The translations under genes were made by a program, and so were the position numbers. DNA of 22,150 nt from a virus (taxonomy: Duplodnaviria; Heunggongvirae; Uroviricota; Caudoviricetes), in IMG/VR virus record IMGVR_UViG_2617270955_000009, one strand, 5' to 3'. Under the pieces are notes generated by a model. That model was not told where the DNA came from and ran no database searches. It saw only the letters and a program-made list of their open reading frames with translations. This document shows, in pieces, positions 5,413 to 22,150 of this stretch (within the stretch, counting starts at the first letter, position 1; every line of letters starts with the position of its first letter).

Positions 5413-6603
5413 TTAATTGCTGTTAACCGAGGTGACCAGATTTGCCAGGTATTTATCGGTAATACGCTGGCGCAGGGTCAGGTTTTCAAGAGGAGGCACC
5501 GGGGTATAGTCGTAGTCGATATACAGTTTTCCGGCCTTGAGGGTTTCCGCATCGTTGGATTCTTCGCTGAACCAGCAGGTCGCATCCACGATATAGCCGT
5601 TTGTTTTCAGCTCACGGAATTTGGCATTGATACCGTCAACGATGTCGCGAATCAGCGTTGCGGTGATGGGCTTGTCCACCGCCCACATGTGCGCCTCAGC
5701 CATCGTGTCGGCCAGCACCTGCGCGGTGCGGGTGTAGTTTTCAAAGAGGAACAGCGGGTCATCAGAGCAGGTACGGTTACCCCAGAAGCGGAAACCGTCG
5801 CGGCGAATCAGCGTAGTGACGCCTGACTCGTTAAGCAGGTCAGCATCAGTGCCGGACTCCTGCAAATCCCAGAATACAGATGCGCTGATGCCGGTAACAC
5901 CGTTTACCCCGACGTTGGACAGCGTTTTATGCCAGCCCTGCTCCTGGTCGATTTTAGCGCGCAGACCCAGCGCACGGGCGGTGGCATACGCGGTGGCGGT
6001 GGTGCTGGTGACCGTATCCCATGCGAGGAAATCCGGCCAGATGACCATCAGCTCACGCTGGCTGAAATTCTGGCGGTAGGCTTTCACCTCGGAAATGGTT
6101 TTACAGCCCCATGCGCTGATATACCCGAAAGCGCGCAGCTTCTGACAGACAGATGCCAGTGCAACAGCCACCTCTTTGGTGTCCAGTCCCGGTACGCCGA
6201 GAATACGCGGTTTAACACCGGTTACCGACTCCGCCGCCAGCAGGGCTTTCAGTCCGGTGTACTGACCGTTTTCGTCGGTGGTGCCGATGATATTGGAAAC
6301 GGTCTGCGCAAGTTTCGTTTCTTCGTCGTCGCCGGTGCCGTCTTCAACACGCACGACAACGGTGACCGGTTTTGACTGGTCAGCGATGGCCTGCAACGAC
6401 GCCGCCAGCGTGCCTTTTTTACCAGCCTTTGCAATTGCGCTCTGCACATTGGTAATCAGCACCGGTTTATTGAGGGGGAAGGTTTCCGCATCCGCATCGC
6501 TGGCCGTGCAGACCATGCCGACAATGGCAGTGGATACGGTGGAAATGACGCGGGTGCCGTCGTTAATCTCCAGCACCTGCACGCCGTGATGATAGTCACT
6601 CAT
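5413..6603 (-). CDS. FI: Contractile tail sheath protein FI, 396 aa
   Basis: 396-aa ORF; length and synteny match P2 gpFI. GGAG Shine-Dalgarno sits about 10 nt upstream of the ATG on the minus strand. Confidence 0.92.
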   Translation of the reverse strand: MSDYHHGVQVLEINDGTRVISTVSTAIVGMVCTASDADAETFPLNKPVLITNVQSAIAKAGKKGTLAASLQAIADQSKPVTVVVRVEDGTGDDEETKLAQTVSNIIGTTDENGQYTGLKALLAAESVTGVKPRILGVPGLDTKEVAVALASVCQKLRAFGYISAWGCKTISEVKAYRQNFSQRELMVIWPDFLAWDTVTSTTATAYATARALGLRAKIDQEQGWHKTLSNVGVNGVTGISASVFWDLQESGTDADLLNESGVTTLIRRDGFRFWGNRTCSDDPLFLFENYTRTAQVLADTMAEAHMWAVDKPITATLIRDIVDGINAKFRELKTNGYIVDATCWFSEESNDAETLKAGKLYIDYDYTPVPPLENLTLRQRITDKYLANLVTSVNSN

Positions 6604-6704
6604 CCGTTTAACTCCGTGGTTAATGGGTGCAACTATTTTCTGTTGTGCGAAGCATGAGACGCTATTTGACCTGGCTGGTCAGTGAATGAAACAACAGATA
6701 AAGA
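6604..6704 (-). promoter_or_regulatory. Expected late promoter region for the FI-FII-E-T-U-D operon (P_F equivalent); exact elements not resolved
   Basis: About 100 bp between a terminator hairpin and the FI start. Contains a TGACC-N5-GGTCA dyad (6667-6681) and a TGTTGT...ACAACA pair, but I could not find an exact TGT-N12-ACA Ogr-site consensus. Confidence 0.3.
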
Positions 6705-6729
6705 AAAGACGGGCAATCAGCCCGTCTTT
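6705..6729 (-). terminator. Rho-independent terminator hairpin (minus-strand oriented)
   Basis: AAAGACGGG-caatcag-CCCGTCTTT, a 9-bp stem with 7-nt loop, followed on the minus strand by the T-rich tract TCTTTATCTGTTGTTTC. Confidence 0.6.
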
Positions 6730-6777
6730 AAATCACAAATTTTGACAGTTTTTGATTTGCATTCGAGAATAACAGTT

Positions 6778-6800
6778 CGGGGGAGAAAAAACCTCCCCCG
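6778..6800 (-). terminator. GC-rich hairpin immediately 3' of the cargo operon (probable terminator)
   Basis: C-GGGGGAG-aaaaaac-CTCCCCC-G, an 8-bp G/C stem 15 nt after the TAA stop at 6815-6817; the downstream minus-strand tract (GAACTGTTATTCTC) is only moderately U-rich. Confidence 0.45.
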
Positions 6801-6814
6801 CCCACGTAACTTGC

Positions 6815-7864
6815 TTAACTACATGAATCAATGATGTTTTTCACAAGCTTATTTATTTCAGATTCATTAGTGCCAAATTCACCCGCTTTAAAATTAATAC
6901 CTCGCGCTGCAAGATTTCTTTTTATTTTACTTACTTCACTCAGCATAAAGTCATAATTTAACGTTTTTTCTTTAATGCCCTTTGAATATATTACAGGGAA
7001 GGCTTTCATTAATGCCGCATATCCTGTGAGTTTACTTAAATAATATTCCCTTGGTGTATTCCACTCAACTGGATAGACATTGCTAATAGCATTAAAATAA
7101 TTCAATATTATTTTTTGAATTACAGCGTCATTCTCTTCGATAAAATAATCGCGGAATATACACTGATTATTTGGCGTTAATGGCAGATTCATTTTTAACA
7201 TTCTTGCATCATCATCAGGTTTTTTTGAAATATGTTGGATAAGATATTTAATGAAAGTGCTTTGTGATAATGATGCATTATCTTGGTTTATTTCCTTTTT
7301 CCCAAGCATTTTTAGCTTTTTATAAAAAGGGGAATCAGGATTACTGTTTATTCCTCTCGCGATTTCGTGGCATGTTTTTTGTGGACTCCTGCGTTCTGCA
7401 AGCGAAAATAAATCATATACAATTGATGGATTTACACGAGTTTGTTTACTATTAATAATTGAGAAAACATAGGCTTTTTCTTCATCAGTAAGATCAAACA
7501 TTAAAACAACAGGTAGTTCAAAAAGTTTAGCATTAGAGGAATTTTTAATTCCCCATAATCTGTGTTGACCATCGATAACATCACCTATAACCACTTCAGA
7601 CTCAAAGTAAAAATAGGTATCATCCATTTTTAAATTGGATGAATCATCGACGGAAATTATGATCGGCGTTGGAAAAGTCGCATCCGGCTCACTAGTGTAC
7701 TTTGCGATTTCTGAAACTCTTGATGATGAAATATCCCTTTGCACACCAAATTCGAAATCTCTGCGACGATCAACTCTAACTATATCGAGCAAGTCAATGG
7801 CTCTTATTGATGTTAAATAGAAAGTACCGATTGGTTGATTAACTTCAATATATTTCAACTTCAT
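6815..7864 (-). CDS. DGQHR-domain protein (DndB-like, ParB/sulfiredoxin-fold), 349 aa; accessory cargo gene B
   Basis: Exact DGQHR motif at residues 98-102 (nt 7559-7573, VIDGQHRLWG), preceded by the family-typical N-terminal QPIGTFYLTSIRAIDLL element. AT-rich codon usage. GGAG Shine-Dalgarno 8-11 nt upstream. Start ATG overlaps the stop of the upstream membrane gene (ATGA at 7861-7864). Confidence 0.8.
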   Translation of the reverse strand: MKLKYIEVNQPIGTFYLTSIRAIDLLDIVRVDRRRDFEFGVQRDISSSRVSEIAKYTSEPDATFPTPIIISVDDSSNLKMDDTYFYFESEVVIGDVIDGQHRLWGIKNSSNAKLFELPVVLMFDLTDEEKAYVFSIINSKQTRVNPSIVYDLFSLAERRSPQKTCHEIARGINSNPDSPFYKKLKMLGKKEINQDNASLSQSTFIKYLIQHISKKPDDDARMLKMNLPLTPNNQCIFRDYFIEENDAVIQKIILNYFNAISNVYPVEWNTPREYYLSKLTGYAALMKAFPVIYSKGIKEKTLNYDFMLSEVSKIKRNLAARGINFKAGEFGTNESEINKLVKNIIDSCS

Positions 7865-8460
7865 ATCATAACTCCTTTACCATCATCAGTTACTTCATTG
7901 GTTGCCATTGTCTGATCTATAACTATTGCATCTTCTTTTTCTATATAACTTTCATCATTTATATCTGTATGTGCAGTAGCGTTAAGTTTTAATACGCCAA
8001 ATGTATAGCATACTAAGACTATAGAAATAACATAAATTATAGGTTGAGTTAAACCGAATGTTAAATCATTAGAATTTGGTAGGATTAAATCCTTTGATTG
8101 CGTAGCAGCGTATATTATACCTGATAATTGTAATAAAATAATCAATAATATTATTGATATGATTTTTATTGTTTTAAATTCAAGTTTTGAACTAAAAAAA
8201 GTTACAAACATAGGCCCAAGGGCAGAGGCTATTAATGCAATGGAAAATGTGTAAAAACTTCCTGACGAACCTTCTATGTAAATAGATTGATCTAGTGGTA
8301 TTGAATGTGAATAATATCTTATGATTATATTTGCAATAATCCCCATTTGCCCACAAACAACTGTAAAAACGATCCAAATAAAAAACTCTCTTTTGTTTTT
8401 TCTTATCGCATCGAATGGATAGGAAAGGGATTTCTTTAATATTTGCCAGTCTTTACTCAT
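7861..8460 (-). CDS. Small integral membrane protein, four predicted TM helices, acidic C-terminal tail (199 aa from ATG; 202 aa if the GTG at 8467-8469 is used); accessory cargo gene A
   Basis: Hydrophobic segments FFIWIVFTVVCGQMGIIANIII, FYTFSIALIASALGPMFVTFF, IKIISIILLIILLQLSGIIYAA and TQPIIYVISIVLVCYTFGVL; C-terminal DINDESYIEKEDAIVIDQTMATNEVTDDGKG. The ORF-track start at 8469 is a GTG; the first ATG is at 8458-8460 with AAGAG upstream. Confidence 0.7.
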   Translation of the reverse strand: MSKDWQILKKSLSYPFDAIRKNKREFFIWIVFTVVCGQMGIIANIIIRYYSHSIPLDQSIYIEGSSGSFYTFSIALIASALGPMFVTFFSSKLEFKTIKIISIILLIILLQLSGIIYAATQSKDLILPNSNDLTFGLTQPIIYVISIVLVCYTFGVLKLNATAHTDINDESYIEKEDAIVIDQTMATNEVTDDGKGVMI

Positions 8461-8646
8461 GTTATGCACTCTTTATTTAAACTTATCAACAATATGTAAC
8501 TATCAATTAATAACCGTTTACTCTTTTCAAATAATAAAATTATAATCATCAAAAAAATCGACATTATAATTAGACAACATTTTTAACACTAAGTGATACC
8601 TGACTCATGTCTCCAGACCCTAAAACCGCTTGCATAATTTAGAATG

Positions 8647-8675
8647 ATAATACTACCTTATAGTAGGCTTGTGAA
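8647..8675 (-). promoter_or_regulatory. Candidate sigma70-type promoter for the cargo operon (TTCACA-17 bp-TATTAT)
   Basis: Read from the minus strand of the AT-rich intergenic region; reasonable -35/-10 spacing but one of several possible matches in AT-rich DNA, with a long (about 180 nt) leader. Confidence 0.2.
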
Positions 8676-8864
8676 CTTATATAGCCTGAGTCAAGTAATT
8701 AATAAATCACTTATTTCGTTTTTTTTGCATTTGGTCGCTGTGATTTTTTCATAAACAAACTTACAATGATGTCAGCAATGTCTGCTCTTGGCACAGAGCG
8801 GACTGTCAGATTAGTTTTTACTCTGTGCCATAGATGTATAAACTCACATCAGAGCTTATACAAT

Positions 8865-9443
8865 TTATTGTGGCATTTCAGGCCATTCTATATCCGGAGC
8901 ATCTTCCGGCTGAATGCGATTCAGTAGCACACGGTATTTTTTCCAGTGTGTCAGGCTTAACTTTTCTTCCTCAGTTGCCATATCCAAATCGACAGCATCC
9001 TGCAGCGTGGCAATGATTTCACCTGCATATGCAATCTGCTCTTTCTTCTGAGACTCAGCCGCTCTGACAAGTGCATCACGCTCTGCATTCTCATCATTCA
9101 CCCACGCATTTCCGTTCCATTTCTGATAATCCCCCTCCGGGGAAATGGCTGTCACGTCTGGAGATAATGCGCCAAGTTCAGAAATATAAATGGCTGCTCC
9201 CGTTTTCGTTTCGTATACGGTCTTTCCGCGATGGTCTTCCATCAACTCCCATTTCATTTCATCTGCATTGAAAACGGCTGCATAACCAGCCGGTATATCA
9301 GGCGGCGCAATATCTGTACTGTTTGCAGGCAAACCTGTATACGGAGGAATATATGCATCACTTTCGCCAATAAATTCATTGGTTCCATCAAGTAAATTGA
9401 AAACGCGGATAGTTTGTGCTTCTGCACTCATTCTGAAAGCCAT
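8865..9443 (-). CDS. G: Tail fibre assembly protein (Tfa / gpG-like chaperone), 192 aa
   Basis: 192-aa ORF immediately 3' of tail fibre H with a Tfa-typical conserved C-terminus ([29 protein letters not shown]). Confidence 0.85.
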
Positions 9444-18767: not shown

Positions 18768-19784
18768 TTACGCTCCCGGCTCTGCGGTCGCTTTAGCCAG
18801 TGTGGAGAAATCACCGACCTTAATTTTTTCCACCAGACAACCGGCGGCGTAGTCTTCCACCACGTAATCAATGTTCATTGACTCGTAGTTCTCCACGCGG
18901 TCGAGTTTCGGGTTTTCCTCAATCACGCGGCGATGGCTGTCATCCATGTAGTAGATGGACAGGTTTTCCAGCTTTGTGATGAGCATCGCATCCGCCGGGA
19001 AGTACGGGACGCGTACCGCCGGCAGGTTACCGATGCGTTTCTGGCTGATGATGACGTCAGCGGCCAGCATTTCGCTGTTGTCCTGCTCCTTGTTGACGAT
19101 GGGAAAATACTTGTCCGCCAGTAGCTGACGTCCCACAATCACCACAAGGTCAGGGTCTTCCTGATACCACGGCTCAATCAGGTTGTTGGTCGCATCCATC
19201 ACCAGTGCGTCAAGGCTGGCATAATCACCGCCCTTACCCACGCGGATAACCTCAGAGATGGTGTGCCCTTCCTCGTCAGTGACCTTGCTCATCACGCGCG
19301 CCGGTGCTTCATTGCGGTATTTCTGCAGCCAGCCGACCGCCACATCCTGTAGCATCGGATTACTGCTGCGGTCAGAGGTTTCGGCACGCCTCACGCCGTT
19401 AAAACCGGCCATGATTAAATCAAGGGACTGGCGTTTGATAATGGCGTTACGGATACGGAGCTGGAAATCCTGATAACGCGCCCACAGGTCAAGCGTTTTG
19501 TAGCGGATATAAAAATCGAAGTTAATCTGGTCGCATTCGTACTTGTTTGACGCCAGCTTCGAGAAGTCCTTCGGCTGACGCTCGGTGCCACCGGCGGTGT
19601 CGCTGGTGCTGGCGATGGAGCCGGTGACACCAATACCAATTTTTTCCCCTTTCATTTCGCTGACCGGCACAATGTTGATGCGGGTCAGAAAGTCAGAGGA
19701 CTCCTGCATGGTGTTCATCAGGGTCTGGGTGACCGACGGTTCAACGGTGAATTTTTTCGACACATCACCGGTGCGTATTTTCAT
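18768..19784 (-). pseudogene. N: Major capsid protein gene N, 5'-truncated by IS insertion (338 codons retained of about 357)
   Basis: ORF is P2 gpN-like from GDVSKKFTVEPSVTQTLMNTMQESSDF onward. The in-frame upstream sequence hits a stop within IS-type repeat sequence (GAGTGATCTCC), and the ATG at 19782-19784 is fortuitous at the junction. Confidence 0.8.
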
Positions 19785-19842
19785 GAAAGGAGATCACTCA
19801 ATAACTTCCATCGAGATCGGGTAATAACATTTGAACAGATCG

Positions 19843-19909
19843 CTGAATAACATCGATGGAGATCACTTTTGACTCATTTTGTTATTCAGTGATCTCCATC
19901 AATGTTATT
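19843..19909. repeat. Imperfect inverted repeat in the IS left terminus
   Basis: CTGAATAACATCGATGGAGATCACT (19843-19867) versus AGTGATCTCCATCAATGTTATT (19888-19909), 1 mismatch in 22 bp; related GGAGATCACTCAATAAC copy at 19789-19805. Confidence 0.7.
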
Positions 19910-19964
19910 GGAACTTCACAGGTGTGTTGATCTGTATCTTTTGCCATTCCGGTAAAGGATACCT

Positions 19965-21506
19965 ATGCCAACAGTTCCAATTTCTATGAGAAAACTTAAA
20001 GAAATTCTTAGGCTTAAATACGGTGTTGGACTCAGCCATCGACAAATTGGTCGTAGTCTTGCAATCTCCCCTTCCGTTGTATCCAGATATGCTAATCGGG
20101 CGGCTCAACTTGGCATAAAGCAGTGGCCCTTACCTACAGGATGGGATGATACAAAACTAAAACATGCGTTCCTTCAGACCCAGGTTAAGATGAAGAAGCA
20201 CTCTCTGCCTGACTGGGCTACAGTACACCGGGAACTGCGTAATAAATGCGTGACGCTGCAGCTACTCTGGGAAGAATACTGTGAGCGTAATCCAGGCGGT
20301 TTTTACAGCTATAACCATTACTGCCGGATGTACCGTGAATGGCTCAAAACCACTTCACCATCAATGCGTCAGGTACATAAAGCTGGCGAAAAACTTTTCG
20401 TTGATTACTGTGGACCTACCGTTGGCGTTACCGACCCTGAGACCGGAGAAATAAGAACTGCTCAGGTCATCGTAGCTGTTCTCGGGGCATCAAGTTACAC
20501 ATGGGCAGAGGCCACCTGGTCTCAGCAGCTTGAAGACTGGGTGATGAGTCATGTTCGCTGCTTCCAGTGGTTGGGTGGCGTTCCTGAACTTGTTGTTCCG
20601 GACAATCTGAAAAGCGCCACATCCAGGGCATGTAAGTATGATCCTGACGTTAACCCTACCTACCAGCAGATGCTTGAGCATTATAATGTCGCAGTTTTGC
20701 CTGCGCGGCCACGTAAACCGAAAGATAAAGCCAAAGCTGAAGTTGGCGTTCAGGTTGTTGAACGCTGGATCATGGCCCGAATCAGGCATGAGATCTTCTA
20801 CAGCCTTGCATCGCTTAATCAGCGCATTCGGGAGTTGCTGGAAAGACTGAATAACAAAATAATGCAGAAGTTGGGTTATTCACGTGCAGAACTCTTCATC
20901 CAGCTTGATAAACCCGCACTGAAGCCTCTTCCTGAAGCCAGTTACAGTTACACCCTGGTGAAGAAAGTCAGAGTTCATGCCGATTACCACGTGGAAATCG
21001 ACAAACATTACTACTCGGTTCCATGTTCGCTGTTAGGCCAGCAACTGGAAGCATGGATCTCCGGAGAACTGGTAAGACTCTTCAATCAGGGGCAGGAGGT
21101 TGCTGTGCACCCGCGCAAGCGTACTTATGGCTACAGTACCCGCAACGAGCACATGCCTGAAGCTCATCGACAGCATGCCACCTGGACGCCAGAGCGTCTT
21201 CTGGAATGGGCGGGGCACATAGGCAGTGAAACTCATAGTTATGTGCTTCATATACTGAACTCTCGTCCACATCCGGAACAAAGCTATCGCTTCTGCCTTG
21301 GACTCCTGAACCTTCATAAAAAATACAGTAAAGCCAGACTTAATGCAGCATGTGCAAGAGCTCTGAAAACAAAGGTATGGCGTCTGTCAGGTATTAAATC
21401 GATCCTGGAAAAAGGTCTGGATAAACAACCTGTTCAGGATCCAAAACCAGATCTGTTATCCACGATGGAACACGAAAACGTACGCGGCAGTGAGTATTAC
21501 CACTGA
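19965..21506 (+). CDS. istA: IS21-family transposase IstA, 513 aa
   Basis: 513-aa ORF with an N-terminal helix-turn-helix region (LSHRQIGRSLAISPSVVSRY) and a central integrase-like region; followed 12 nt later by an IstB-type gene. Confidence 0.85.
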   Translation: MPTVPISMRKLKEILRLKYGVGLSHRQIGRSLAISPSVVSRYANRAAQLGIKQWPLPTGWDDTKLKHAFLQTQVKMKKHSLPDWATVHRELRNKCVTLQLLWEEYCERNPGGFYSYNHYCRMYREWLKTTSPSMRQVHKAGEKLFVDYCGPTVGVTDPETGEIRTAQVIVAVLGASSYTWAEATWSQQLEDWVMSHVRCFQWLGGVPELVVPDNLKSATSRACKYDPDVNPTYQQMLEHYNVAVLPARPRKPKDKAKAEVGVQVVERWIMARIRHEIFYSLASLNQRIRELLERLNNKIMQKLGYSRAELFIQLDKPALKPLPEASYSYTLVKKVRVHADYHVEIDKHYYSVPCSLLGQQLEAWISGELVRLFNQGQEVAVHPRKRTYGYSTRNEHMPEAHRQHATWTPERLLEWAGHIGSETHSYVLHILNSRPHPEQSYRFCLGLLNLHKKYSKARLNAACARALKTKVWRLSGIKSILEKGLDKQPVQDPKPDLLSTMEHENVRGSEYYH

Positions 21507-21517
21507 TACGGGATCCA

Positions 21518-22150
21518 ATGATGAATCATCTTTACGAACAACTGACCGCACTTAAACTCACCGGCTTCCGTGATGCGCTTAAAAAGCAACTTGCTCAACC
21601 GGGCACATACCAGGAGCTGGGCTTCGAAGAACGCCTGTCATTACTGACAGCAGAAGAACTAACCTGCCGTGAAAACAGGAAGGCAGAGCGTCTGATCAAA
21701 CATGCACGGTTCAGACTTAATGCTGAGTTATCAAAGCTGGATTATCGTAACAATAGAGGGCTGGACAGGGCCCTCATCCGTTCACTCAGTCAGGGAAACT
21801 GGTTAACCCTGAAACAAAATATTTTACTGACCGGGGCCACCGGCAGCGGTAAAACGTTCCTGGCATGTGCACTTGGTCATAATGCCTGCCGACAGGGATA
21901 CAAGGTCTACTATTATCGCCTTAAAGCGCTGATGGAACAGTGCTATCAGGGGCATGCTGATGGAAGATACAGCAAACTTTTGACCAGGCTGAATAATAGC
22001 GATCTGCTGCTTCTGGATGACTGGGGGCTGGAACCTCTCTCATCAGAACAGCGTAGCGACCTGCTGGAAATAGTGGATCTGATGTACCAACGAGGCTCAA
22101 TCATCGTAGTGAGCCAGTTGCCGGTGGAAAACTGGTACAAAATGATCGGA
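21518..22150 (+). CDS. istB: IS21-family ATP-binding helper protein IstB (3'-partial, runs off window)
   Basis: My own translation from ATG 21518: MMNHLYEQLTALKLTGF... with Walker A GATGSGKT and Walker B LLLLDDWG; no stop before the window end. Confidence 0.8.
   Translation, partial: MMNHLYEQLTALKLTGFRDALKKQLAQPGTYQELGFEERLSLLTAEELTCRENRKAERLIKHARFRLNAELSKLDYRNNRGLDRALIRSLSQGNWLTLKQNILLTGATGSGKTFLACALGHNACRQGYKVYYYRLKALMEQCYQGHADGRYSKLLTRLNNSDLLLLDDWGLEPLSSEQRSDLLEIVDLMYQRGSIIVVSQLPVENWYKMIG

Follow-up and report, generated by a model that had tools for sequence, protein, structure and literature searches.

Which function can be assigned to two genes that lie together between the tail genes of a P2-like prophage? 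This question is raised by a stretch of 22,150 nucleotides (nt) of the virus record IMGVR_UViG_2617270955_000009, called the window in the following. It carries an AT-rich island with gene A, encoding a small hydrophobic protein, and gene B, encoding a protein with DGQHR domain. Judged from the sequence, the A-B pair is a two-gene module of a putative sensor and a membrane partner, consisting of an undescribed membrane protein family and an unstudied clade of DGQHR proteins. The positions of all features are listed in Table 1.

The association of both genes is retained far beyond the window. With the profile of A, run on all open reading frames (ORFs), an A-family ORF was detected directly upstream of B and on the same strand in 75 of 80 gene B-centred metagenome loci. 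Four of the five loci without such an ORF have less than 265 nt of contig upstream of B. The fifth, L096, encodes at this place an unrelated protein of 220 amino acids (aa) with two N-terminal transmembrane (TM) helices and a soluble domain (OLHF01000133.1, 3333-3995). This partner overlaps its gene B by 4 nt, in a locus flanked by dndE-D-C and a 938-aa ORF without PADLOC match. The protein ends in ...DEYIEHENREVQALNEGSENLETDGEGVRV, a tail of the gene A type (...DEYIEHE...TDGEGVRV). In the gene A-centred loci B was found downstream in all cases but one copy of Chitinophaga. The ATGA overlap, from which the initial annotation had derived a co-expression of both genes, was read at 7861-7864, and about 41 of 46 non-redundant loci have retained an overlap of this type. 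Together with the 75 of 80 loci, this bears out the coupling. The single A-family match without B (L025:5893-6252, a Chitinophaga metagenome-assembled genome) covers profile positions 6-118 and is probably truncated or decayed.

With high confidence in both statements jointly, A and B can be regarded as an obligate, translationally coupled gene pair, and A as an integral inner-membrane protein with four helices, N-in/C-in topology and a basic N-terminus.

A is a real gene and not a chance frame in AT-rich DNA. At a GC content of 0.32, 199 stop-free codons occur by chance with a probability of about 7e-8. The longest ORF in 500 shuffles of the island reached at most 176 codons, compared to 353 observed. 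The counterpart in RefSeq (WP_001530525.1, hypothetical protein) is annotated with 600 nt from the ATG, and homologues range from Enterobacteria to Bacteroidota. The ORF 7861-8469 (-) reported initially is present in the ORF list, and the codon positions given with it, the first ATG at 8458-8460 and a GTG at 8467-8469, are correct. The start codon had been called ambiguous, which could not be upheld. The GTG was listed as start only by the ORF rule, under which a frame begins at whichever ATG, GTG or TTG comes first behind a stop. It sits within the Shine-Dalgarno-like element of the ATG: AAAGAG is located at -14 to -9 from this codon, and the GTG begins with the last G of this element. Without exception, the close homologues present at full length in the protein database have 199 aa, and the distant homologues of Franconibacter and Vibrio show the aligned ATG without an upstream extension. 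By the position of the Shine-Dalgarno-like element, RefSeq and the homologue starts the GTG was ruled out, and the ATG at 8460 is taken as the predicted start.

For the membrane part, residues were numbered from this ATG. Hydrophobic segments at about 27-49, 69-91, 98-120 and 139-160 (peaks 1.8-2.6) were detected in Kyte-Doolittle windows. The AlphaFold2 model, calculated with 19 homologues as input, shows helices at 23-52, 56-86, 93-123 and 138-157 (pLDDT 74.8, pTM 0.64), and additionally a helix at the N-terminus (3-21) and, with low confidence, one in the tail (170-192). The four hydrophobic helices noticed in the initial annotation were thus found again by both approaches, and hydrophobic segments are present in every inspected homologue. 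Seven lysine and arginine residues are located within residues 1-26 and three lysines in the 92-100 loop; the other two loops contain none or one. Since these residues concentrate in the N-terminus and the 92-100 loop, the predicted topology is N-in/C-in with a cytoplasmic tail. Four hydrophobic helices of TM length coincide with a positive-inside bias, as expected for an integral membrane protein.

The best-conserved stretch of A, G67-S-F-Y-T-F-S-I-A-L-I-A-S-A-L-G-P at TM2, is near-invariant between Enterobacteria and Bacteroidota. In 19 sequences of two phyla G67, S68, F69, Y70, T71, S73, I74, A75, A78, S79, L81, G82 and P83 are invariant. Among 120 representatives the top conserved positions are P15, W29, G37, G40, G67 (95%), F69, Y70 (88%), I74, F95, K99, Q139 and Y152. 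In TM1, where G37 and G40 are conserved in 82% and 92% of the family, T33, G37, G40, N44 and R48 follow each other with a spacing of 3-4 residues and lie on one helix face. This face of polar and small residues could be a specific packing or conduction surface. The TM core is the most conserved part of A, which argues against a passive anchor.

The C-terminal tail had been described as strongly acidic. This holds for the copy in the window, where residues 163-199 contain ten aspartate or glutamate and two lysine residues (net charge -8), but not for the family, of which this copy marks the acidic extreme. Among the 120 representatives 85% of the tails are net acidic with a median of -3, and 15% are neutral or basic. 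According to the alignments, the conserved property of the tail is not acidity but two sequence motifs, namely [FY]-x-D-[LI]-[DN]-D-x-x-[YF]-x3-[ED]-[DN]-x-x-V and, at the extreme C-terminus, D193-G-x-G196-x-K-[LIV]. Glycine at -4 is present in 42 of 46 non-redundant loci (codons GGA 18, GGG 10, GGT 9, GGC 5) and aspartate at -7 in 43 of 46 (GAT 24, GAC 19). Because all synonymous codons occur at both positions, the constraint acts on the protein, and a conservation of the tail as by-product of the ribosome-binding site of B was ruled out. We suggest that the tail is a docking peptide for B, especially with its terminus D-G-x-G-hydrophobic-x-hydrophobic.

A profile search in 1.84 billion representatives yielded 265 clusters of the A family (E<=1e-3), with stand-alone proteins of 54-275 aa in all matches listed; 36 relatives were obtained by a word-indexed search. 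Relatives with 58-99% identity occur in Salmonella, Serratia, Citrobacter, Pectobacterium, Pantoea, Providencia and Franconibacter, among them copies with 97-99% identity in the first four genera, and relatives with about 40% identity in Flavobacterium and related bacteria. No significant family match of A was obtained with Pfam, NCBIfam, PADLOC and PHROGs, and no match by tblastn in GenBank phages and PLSDB plasmids. A homology to lambda RexB was ruled out (hhalign probability 0.1%, E=0.58), as well as an identity with KwaA, for which no model match was found. PADLOC 2.0 contains neither a model for A nor one for the A-B pair. No description of a membrane-protein/DGQHR pair was found in the literature searched (DGQHR, DndB-like, accessions, integron, P2 hotspot).

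The partner B passes the thresholds of TIGR03187 (161.9 bits, cutoff 58.85) and PF14072 (DndB; E=5.4e-11, 42.6 bits, cutoff 29.1) and matches the PADLOC DpdB model with E=1.2e-16. The best match in NCBIfam, TIGR04172, remains below its cutoff (168.9 bits, cutoff 450, E=1.7e-49), as does the DpdB equivalog NF041060 (56.2 bits, cutoff 300). Q42-R43, D98-G-Q-H-R102 and F134...N138 do not vary among 20 sequences. B carries these signature motifs of the DGQHR domain family intact, i.e. the QR pair, the DGQHR pentapeptide and FxxxN as defined in PMC4619093. The top structural match of the model (pLDDT 84.7) is Noc (7nfu, probability 0.97), followed by ParB and PadC; the E-values of these Foldseek matches (Noc, ParB-CDP, PadC) are weak, 5.5e-3 to 0.3, with low TM-scores. 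No transmembrane or hydrophobic segment was found in B, and its C-terminal half gave no HNH, other nuclease or effector domain with Pfam and PDB profiles. B is about 50% identical among E. coli, Vibrio, Acinetobacter and Chryseobacterium; across phyla the identity is about 50% for B versus 25-45% for A.

Two further observations concern B. The segment R159-S-P-x-K-T-x-H166 (window 7369-7392) is invariant in 20 of 20 aligned homologues and resembles the Rx4-6H motif of HEPN proteins. An HEPN RNase domain in the C-terminal half, considered on account of R159-x6-H166 and Makarova 2013, was not supported by profile searches. In gut metagenomes a subclade of B (L015-L017:5001-6386; P0118, P0119, P0123 and others) has about 460 aa, of which about 110 form an extension at the C-terminus. 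An A-family gene still precedes it, and a 2,061-aa Eco57I/N6-methylase/SNF2 fusion, a Toprim primase and a SocA toxin are located nearby.

Related domains are known from several systems. DndI, SspE and GmrSD-BrxU (DUF262 with DUF1524 HNH) have, as predicted for B as well, a ParB/Srx-fold domain binding nucleoside triphosphates (NTPs), in which DGQ(H/Q)R belongs to a sensor of DNA or its modification (PMC11662687; PMC4619093). In contrast to these proteins, B has DGQHR and not DGQQR, comprises 349 aa without HNH, and its partner is a separate membrane protein. A membership of B in this group was rejected, as its C-terminal half gave no HNH or nuclease match and PADLOC no match to these families; B is also not DndI-type, since DndI is a different, DUF262-HNH protein. 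The ATPase domain of DndI, of ParB fold, serves as sensor of phosphorothioate DNA and regulates the fused nuclease (PMC11662687).

DndB and DpdB belong to the same domain family as B (PF14072, TIGR03187), with QR, DGQHR and FxxxN intact, but no dnd or dpd genes are present in the window. An assignment as DpdB was dismissed by the score with NF041060 (56.2 versus 300) and by the island, which holds only A and B. B is also not the DndB of a dndBCDE operon: it is flanked by P2 tail genes, and its dnd-linked relatives are convergent and not the first gene of the operon. In the sole annotated dnd locus of our set (L113) dndB is located inside the dndBCD operon and not after a membrane-protein gene. 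DndB was reported as ATP-dependent regulator and DNA binder, not as nuclease. Members of TIGR04172 resemble B in that they have their own four-TM gene upstream, which abuts or overlaps them (about 173 aa, ending in D-x-x-G-F-x-hydrophobic). These partners are not detectably homologous to A, and true TIGR04172 genes adjoin dndBCD or PbeA/PbeC, whereas the copy in the window has no such neighbours. With 168.9 bits, less than 450, and no dnd genes in the window, B was not assigned to this family.

Two-gene systems with a similar architecture were also compared. Kiwa consists of the four-TM protein KwaA and the cytoplasmic, DNA-associated KwaB and also occurs on P2/P4-type elements. RexA and RexB of lambda are a prophage pair, in which the four-TM protein RexB is the membrane effector under a cytoplasmic partner. 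The A-B pair has the same kind of architecture, a small four-TM protein and a presumably cytoplasmic, nucleic-acid-associated partner on a prophage. In common with Kiwa, the partner would be DNA-associated. Kiwa was rejected by homology, as no match to KwaA or KwaB (DUF4868) was found and B is DndB-like. RexB shows no homology to A, the two genes stand in the opposite order and RexA lacks the ParB fold, but the mechanism proposed below is alike. Noc is a ParB-fold NTP switch, as presumed for B, and its nucleotide state controls membrane association (PMC12704722). In contrast, Noc reaches the membrane with an amphipathic helix of its own and has its function in cell division, while the presumed tether of B is a separate membrane protein.

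The location of the pair is in agreement with a defence function. In E. coli the identical locus has the order tape measure, E, tail tube, tail sheath (5413-6603, -), DGQHR protein, hypothetical protein, fibre assembly (8865-9443) and tail fibre. A and B are the only cargo of the island. Between the same flanks other P2-like phages and prophages have different cargo, including DUF3800, SMEK and metal-binding proteins. Hence, the DNA between G and FI is variable and compositionally foreign, as at the Z/fun hotspot of P2, and this tail-gene locus was counted among the P2 defence hotspots (PMC13586616). The setting of a defence system, presumed in the initial annotation, is consistent with this hotspot and with the defence-rich neighbourhoods described in the following. 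The A-B cargo is carried by 3 of 5,426 complete E. coli genomes.

Outside of P2-like prophages, a pair on chromosome 2 of Vibrio cholerae (L009-L011; A 49% and B 52% identical) is located among DUF645, TIR, acetyltransferase and glyoxalase cassettes, in one strain about 3 kb from the integrase gene, and appears to be a superintegron cassette. The pair of Flavobacterium adjoins McrBC and a SLFN/AlbA_2 gene, and on a gut mobile element the neighbours of A-B are a methylase-helicase fusion of 2,061 aa and a toxin-antitoxin gene, SocA. On a 15-kb plasmid of Acinetobacter a pair of the DGQHR type lies beside a BglII-type restriction-modification system. A scan of 141 flanking ORFs (40 non-redundant loci) revealed DndC/D/H, PbeC, MADS, AriA, LmuB, ThsA, PtuA, SduA, AbiU, methyltransferases and PADLOC candidate systems. 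Toxin-antitoxin genes near the pairs are VapC, MazEF and SocA.

In three loci of this clade (L008, L044 and L096) the pair abuts a convergent dndE-dndD-dndC. The order in L044 is dndH, A, B and then convergent dndE-D-C; in Salmonella dndI occupies the equivalent slot between dndH and dndE (PMC11662687). Already in 2011, a DGQHR gene had been noticed between dptH and dptE (PMC3226654). In L008 (Franconibacter) a 576-aa HATPase_c_3 protein with a weak PADLOC match to MzaB (E=3e-18) and a 150-aa protein are encoded between the pair and dndE (L008:7751-9937); these two genes may be another defence module.

More distant DGQHR genes also have membrane partners. On plasmids of Acinetobacter, Bacillus thuringiensis, Rhizobium rhizogenes, R. 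leguminosarum and Pontibrevibacter, DGQHR genes with 22-34% identity to B are each preceded by an abutting or overlapping gene of 169-207 aa with three or four TM helices. No homology of these five partners to A could be detected. Three of them end in EGENFKL, DLDGFEV and DNGGFKL, resembling DDGKGVMI of A; the endings of the other two, RKRGDN and RRSRGIH, do not match the tail motif. Upstream of the DGQHR genes on plasmids of Lactococcus and Lactiplantibacillus, which fall into the same identity range, the abutting partner is likewise not homologous to A and has a soluble domain followed by two TM helices and an acidic tail. As far as can be seen from these comparisons, an upstream membrane gene with a DGQHR gene is an old, modular arrangement, in which the membrane part was swapped several times. 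Such an exchange is typical of effector slots and supports A as effector. The seven-residue C-terminal peptide common to unrelated partners, exact in one case and looser in others, should therefore be the interface. In the filamentous phage PfAC19 of Pseudomonas (L118, 2366-4345) a DGQHR gene of an inovirus with 25% identity adjoins the repressor. The 324-aa hypothetical gene downstream of it has no clear N-terminal TM helices, and the arrangement differs from the pairs.

A role of the A-B pair in defence or exclusion is probable from these comparisons. As its most plausible form we propose, with not quite an even chance for the full chain, a self-contained cargo module of the prophage with B as sensor and A as membrane effector, acting by abortive infection or exclusion. 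The tail of A would dock B at the inner membrane. B would be an NTP-dependent sensor of DNA or DNA modification, like the related ParB-fold domains of DndI, SspE and GmrSD. On contact with invading DNA, B would convert the closed A into its active form. The bundle of A would then oligomerise or open, membrane function would collapse and the infection would stop. A would thereby be the effector, a part played in DndI and SspE by an HNH nuclease domain. The role of B as sensor and switch is suggested by the analogy to DndI, SspE and GmrSD, by the ATP-dependent regulator role of DndB and by the lack of a recognisable effector domain in B. The role of A as effector is suggested because its membrane core is best conserved, its slot is swapped between clades and RexB-like partners act in this way.

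Several points weigh against this proposal. The basis of the defence role is genomic context. Fold searches with the model of A returned generic helical bundles only and no channel or pore family, and among the matches listed (all <=275 aa) there was no natural fusion of A and B. The dnd-linked loci account for only 3 of about 58 non-redundant loci of the clade, and the analogy to DndI may not fit the copy on the prophage. Finally, the roles could be reversed, with B as effector and A as sensor or anchor, since ParB-fold proteins can be nucleases; the superfamily grouping includes the nuclease Osa (PMC11662687).

Such a reversal leads to a mode of action like that of Kiwa, in which A is the membrane sensor or anchor holding B, and B clamps, nicks or blocks the incoming DNA. 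We consider this possible but rather doubtful. It agrees with the architecture of a four-TM protein and a cytoplasmic DNA-binding partner, with the existence of ParB-fold nucleases and with the far stronger conservation of B (about 50% versus 25-45%), as for an enzyme; furthermore, the best fold matches of B are the DNA-clamping ParB and the membrane-binding Noc. However, the TM core of A with its invariant polar residues exceeds the needs of an anchor, unrelated proteins take the place of the membrane partner in other loci, the studied relative DndB was reported as regulator and DNA binder rather than nuclease, and no homology to KwaA or KwaB was found. An accessory function in phosphorothioate modification, by which A-B would sense or regulate the sulfur in the DNA backbone and would have no role in a host without dnd or pbe, is improbable. 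Although TIGR04172 is the best NCBIfam match of B (E=1.7e-49), its score of 169 is far under the cutoff of 450. The loci L008, L044 and L096 abut dndE-D-C, a DGQHR gene was seen between dptH and dptE (PMC3226654), and the true TIGR04172 genes next to dndBCD or PbeA/PbeC share an upstream four-TM gene, but most loci (prophage, Vibrio cassettes, small plasmids) have no dnd genes nearby. In addition, A is 97-99% identical in Salmonella, Serratia, Citrobacter and Pectobacterium, so the pair works or is tolerated independently of host modification.

P2 itself excludes T5 by its own Z/fun gene. A-B are located at this locus and A is an inner-membrane protein of a prophage, which would fit superinfection exclusion, with A blocking the DNA injection or an envelope step of competing phages and B only as regulator. 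This is hardly probable, as it explains neither the universal coupling to a highly conserved, presumably NTP-binding protein of DNA type nor the occurrence on chromosomes, integrons and plasmids outside of prophages. An addiction module, in which A is a small membrane toxin neutralised by B and the island is stabilised without anti-phage role, is very unlikely, too. The compact two-gene operon on mobile elements near VapC, MazEF and SocA would be in accordance with it, and in one of three E. coli carriers IS1 is located just upstream of the operon. But a deeply conserved putative NTPase of 349 aa is atypical as antitoxin, the putative toxin gene is first and translationally coupled, and the neighbours are mainly defence systems.

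Beyond the window, a membrane protein is paired with a DGQHR protein in Proteobacteria, Bacteroidota and Bacillota; such pairs are carried by prophages, integron cassettes, plasmids and dnd/pbe islands. It is conceivable, though speculative, that they form a widespread defence family undescribed in the literature and databases searched, in which a ParB-fold NTP switch recognises incoming DNA or the state of its modification and gates an interchangeable membrane effector via a short conserved C-terminal docking peptide. If the proposal of B as sensor and A as effector holds true, the pair would be the membrane-killing counterpart of the SspE and DndI nucleases. It would then be a new prophage-borne defence family, joining the ParB-fold NTP switches (segregation, Noc, DndB, DpdB, SspE/DndI) with membrane-disrupting abortive-infection effectors. 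Hundreds of hypothetical/DGQHR pairs, including the TIGR04172 gene and the superintegron cassettes of V. cholerae, would obtain a function.

Table 1 Features of the AT-rich island, with positions in the window
Feature	Position	Strand	Basis and remarks
AT-rich island	6604..8864		2.26 kb, GC 0.32 versus about 0.56 in flanks/prophage; between FI (sheath) and G (fibre assembly)
Putative promoter, TTCACA-17-TATTAT	8647..8675	(-)	Consensus scan, 10/12 matches; about 190 nt 5' of gene A
Shine-Dalgarno-like AAAGAG	8469..8474	(-)	Read from sequence; 8 nt 5' of gene A ATG
Upstream in-frame GTG	8467..8469	(-)	Rejected start; overlaps AAAGAG, no Shine-Dalgarno-like element of its own
Gene A coding sequence	7861..8460	(-)	ORF list and RefSeq; 199 aa and stop, begins at ATG
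TM1, residues 27-49	8314..8382	(-)	Hydropathy and model; conserved stripe T33-G37-Q38-G40-N44-R48
TM2, residues 69-91	8188..8256	(-)	Hydropathy and model; G67-S68 just before
TM3, residues 98-120	8101..8169	(-)	Hydropathy and model; predicted cytoplasmic loop F95-x-x-x-K99 before
TM4, residues 139-160	7981..8046	(-)	Hydropathy and model; Q139 95%, Y152 94% conserved
Predicted cytoplasmic tail, residues 161-199	7864..7980	(-)	D-I-N-D-E-S-Y...E-D-x-x-V and terminal D193-G-K-G196-V-M-I
Shine-Dalgarno AAGGAG of gene B	7872..7877	(-)	Within last codons of gene A; ggtaAAGGAGttatgatATGa
ATGA overlap, gene A stop/gene B start	7861..7864	(-)	Read from sequence
Gene B	6815..7864	(-)	349 aa, DGQHR-domain protein (DndB-like, predicted ParB/Srx fold)
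Terminator-like GC hairpin and T-run	6778..6800	(-)	Directly 3' of gene B
Second terminator-like hairpin	6705..6729	(-)	Scan

Judging by the promoter-like site, the genes A and B and the pair of terminator-like hairpins, the island is apparently a single transcription unit. No match in its intergenic regions was obtained in a scan with Rfam. In E. coli MSB1_4E, one of the three carriers, an insertion of IS1 precedes the promoter-like site by about 10-25 nt, corresponding to about 8684-8699 of the window (L002:3600-4363), and may affect the expression of A-B.

Two minor observations were made outside of the island. Within gene G a partial Rfam match to IS009 was detected at 8902-9000 (-) of the window, at the edge of the scan (39.4 bits, E=4.7e-7, gathering score 117). 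Positions 1-500 and 19501-22150 of the window have a GC content of 0.45-0.49 compared to about 0.57 and may be other variable loci or borders of the prophage.

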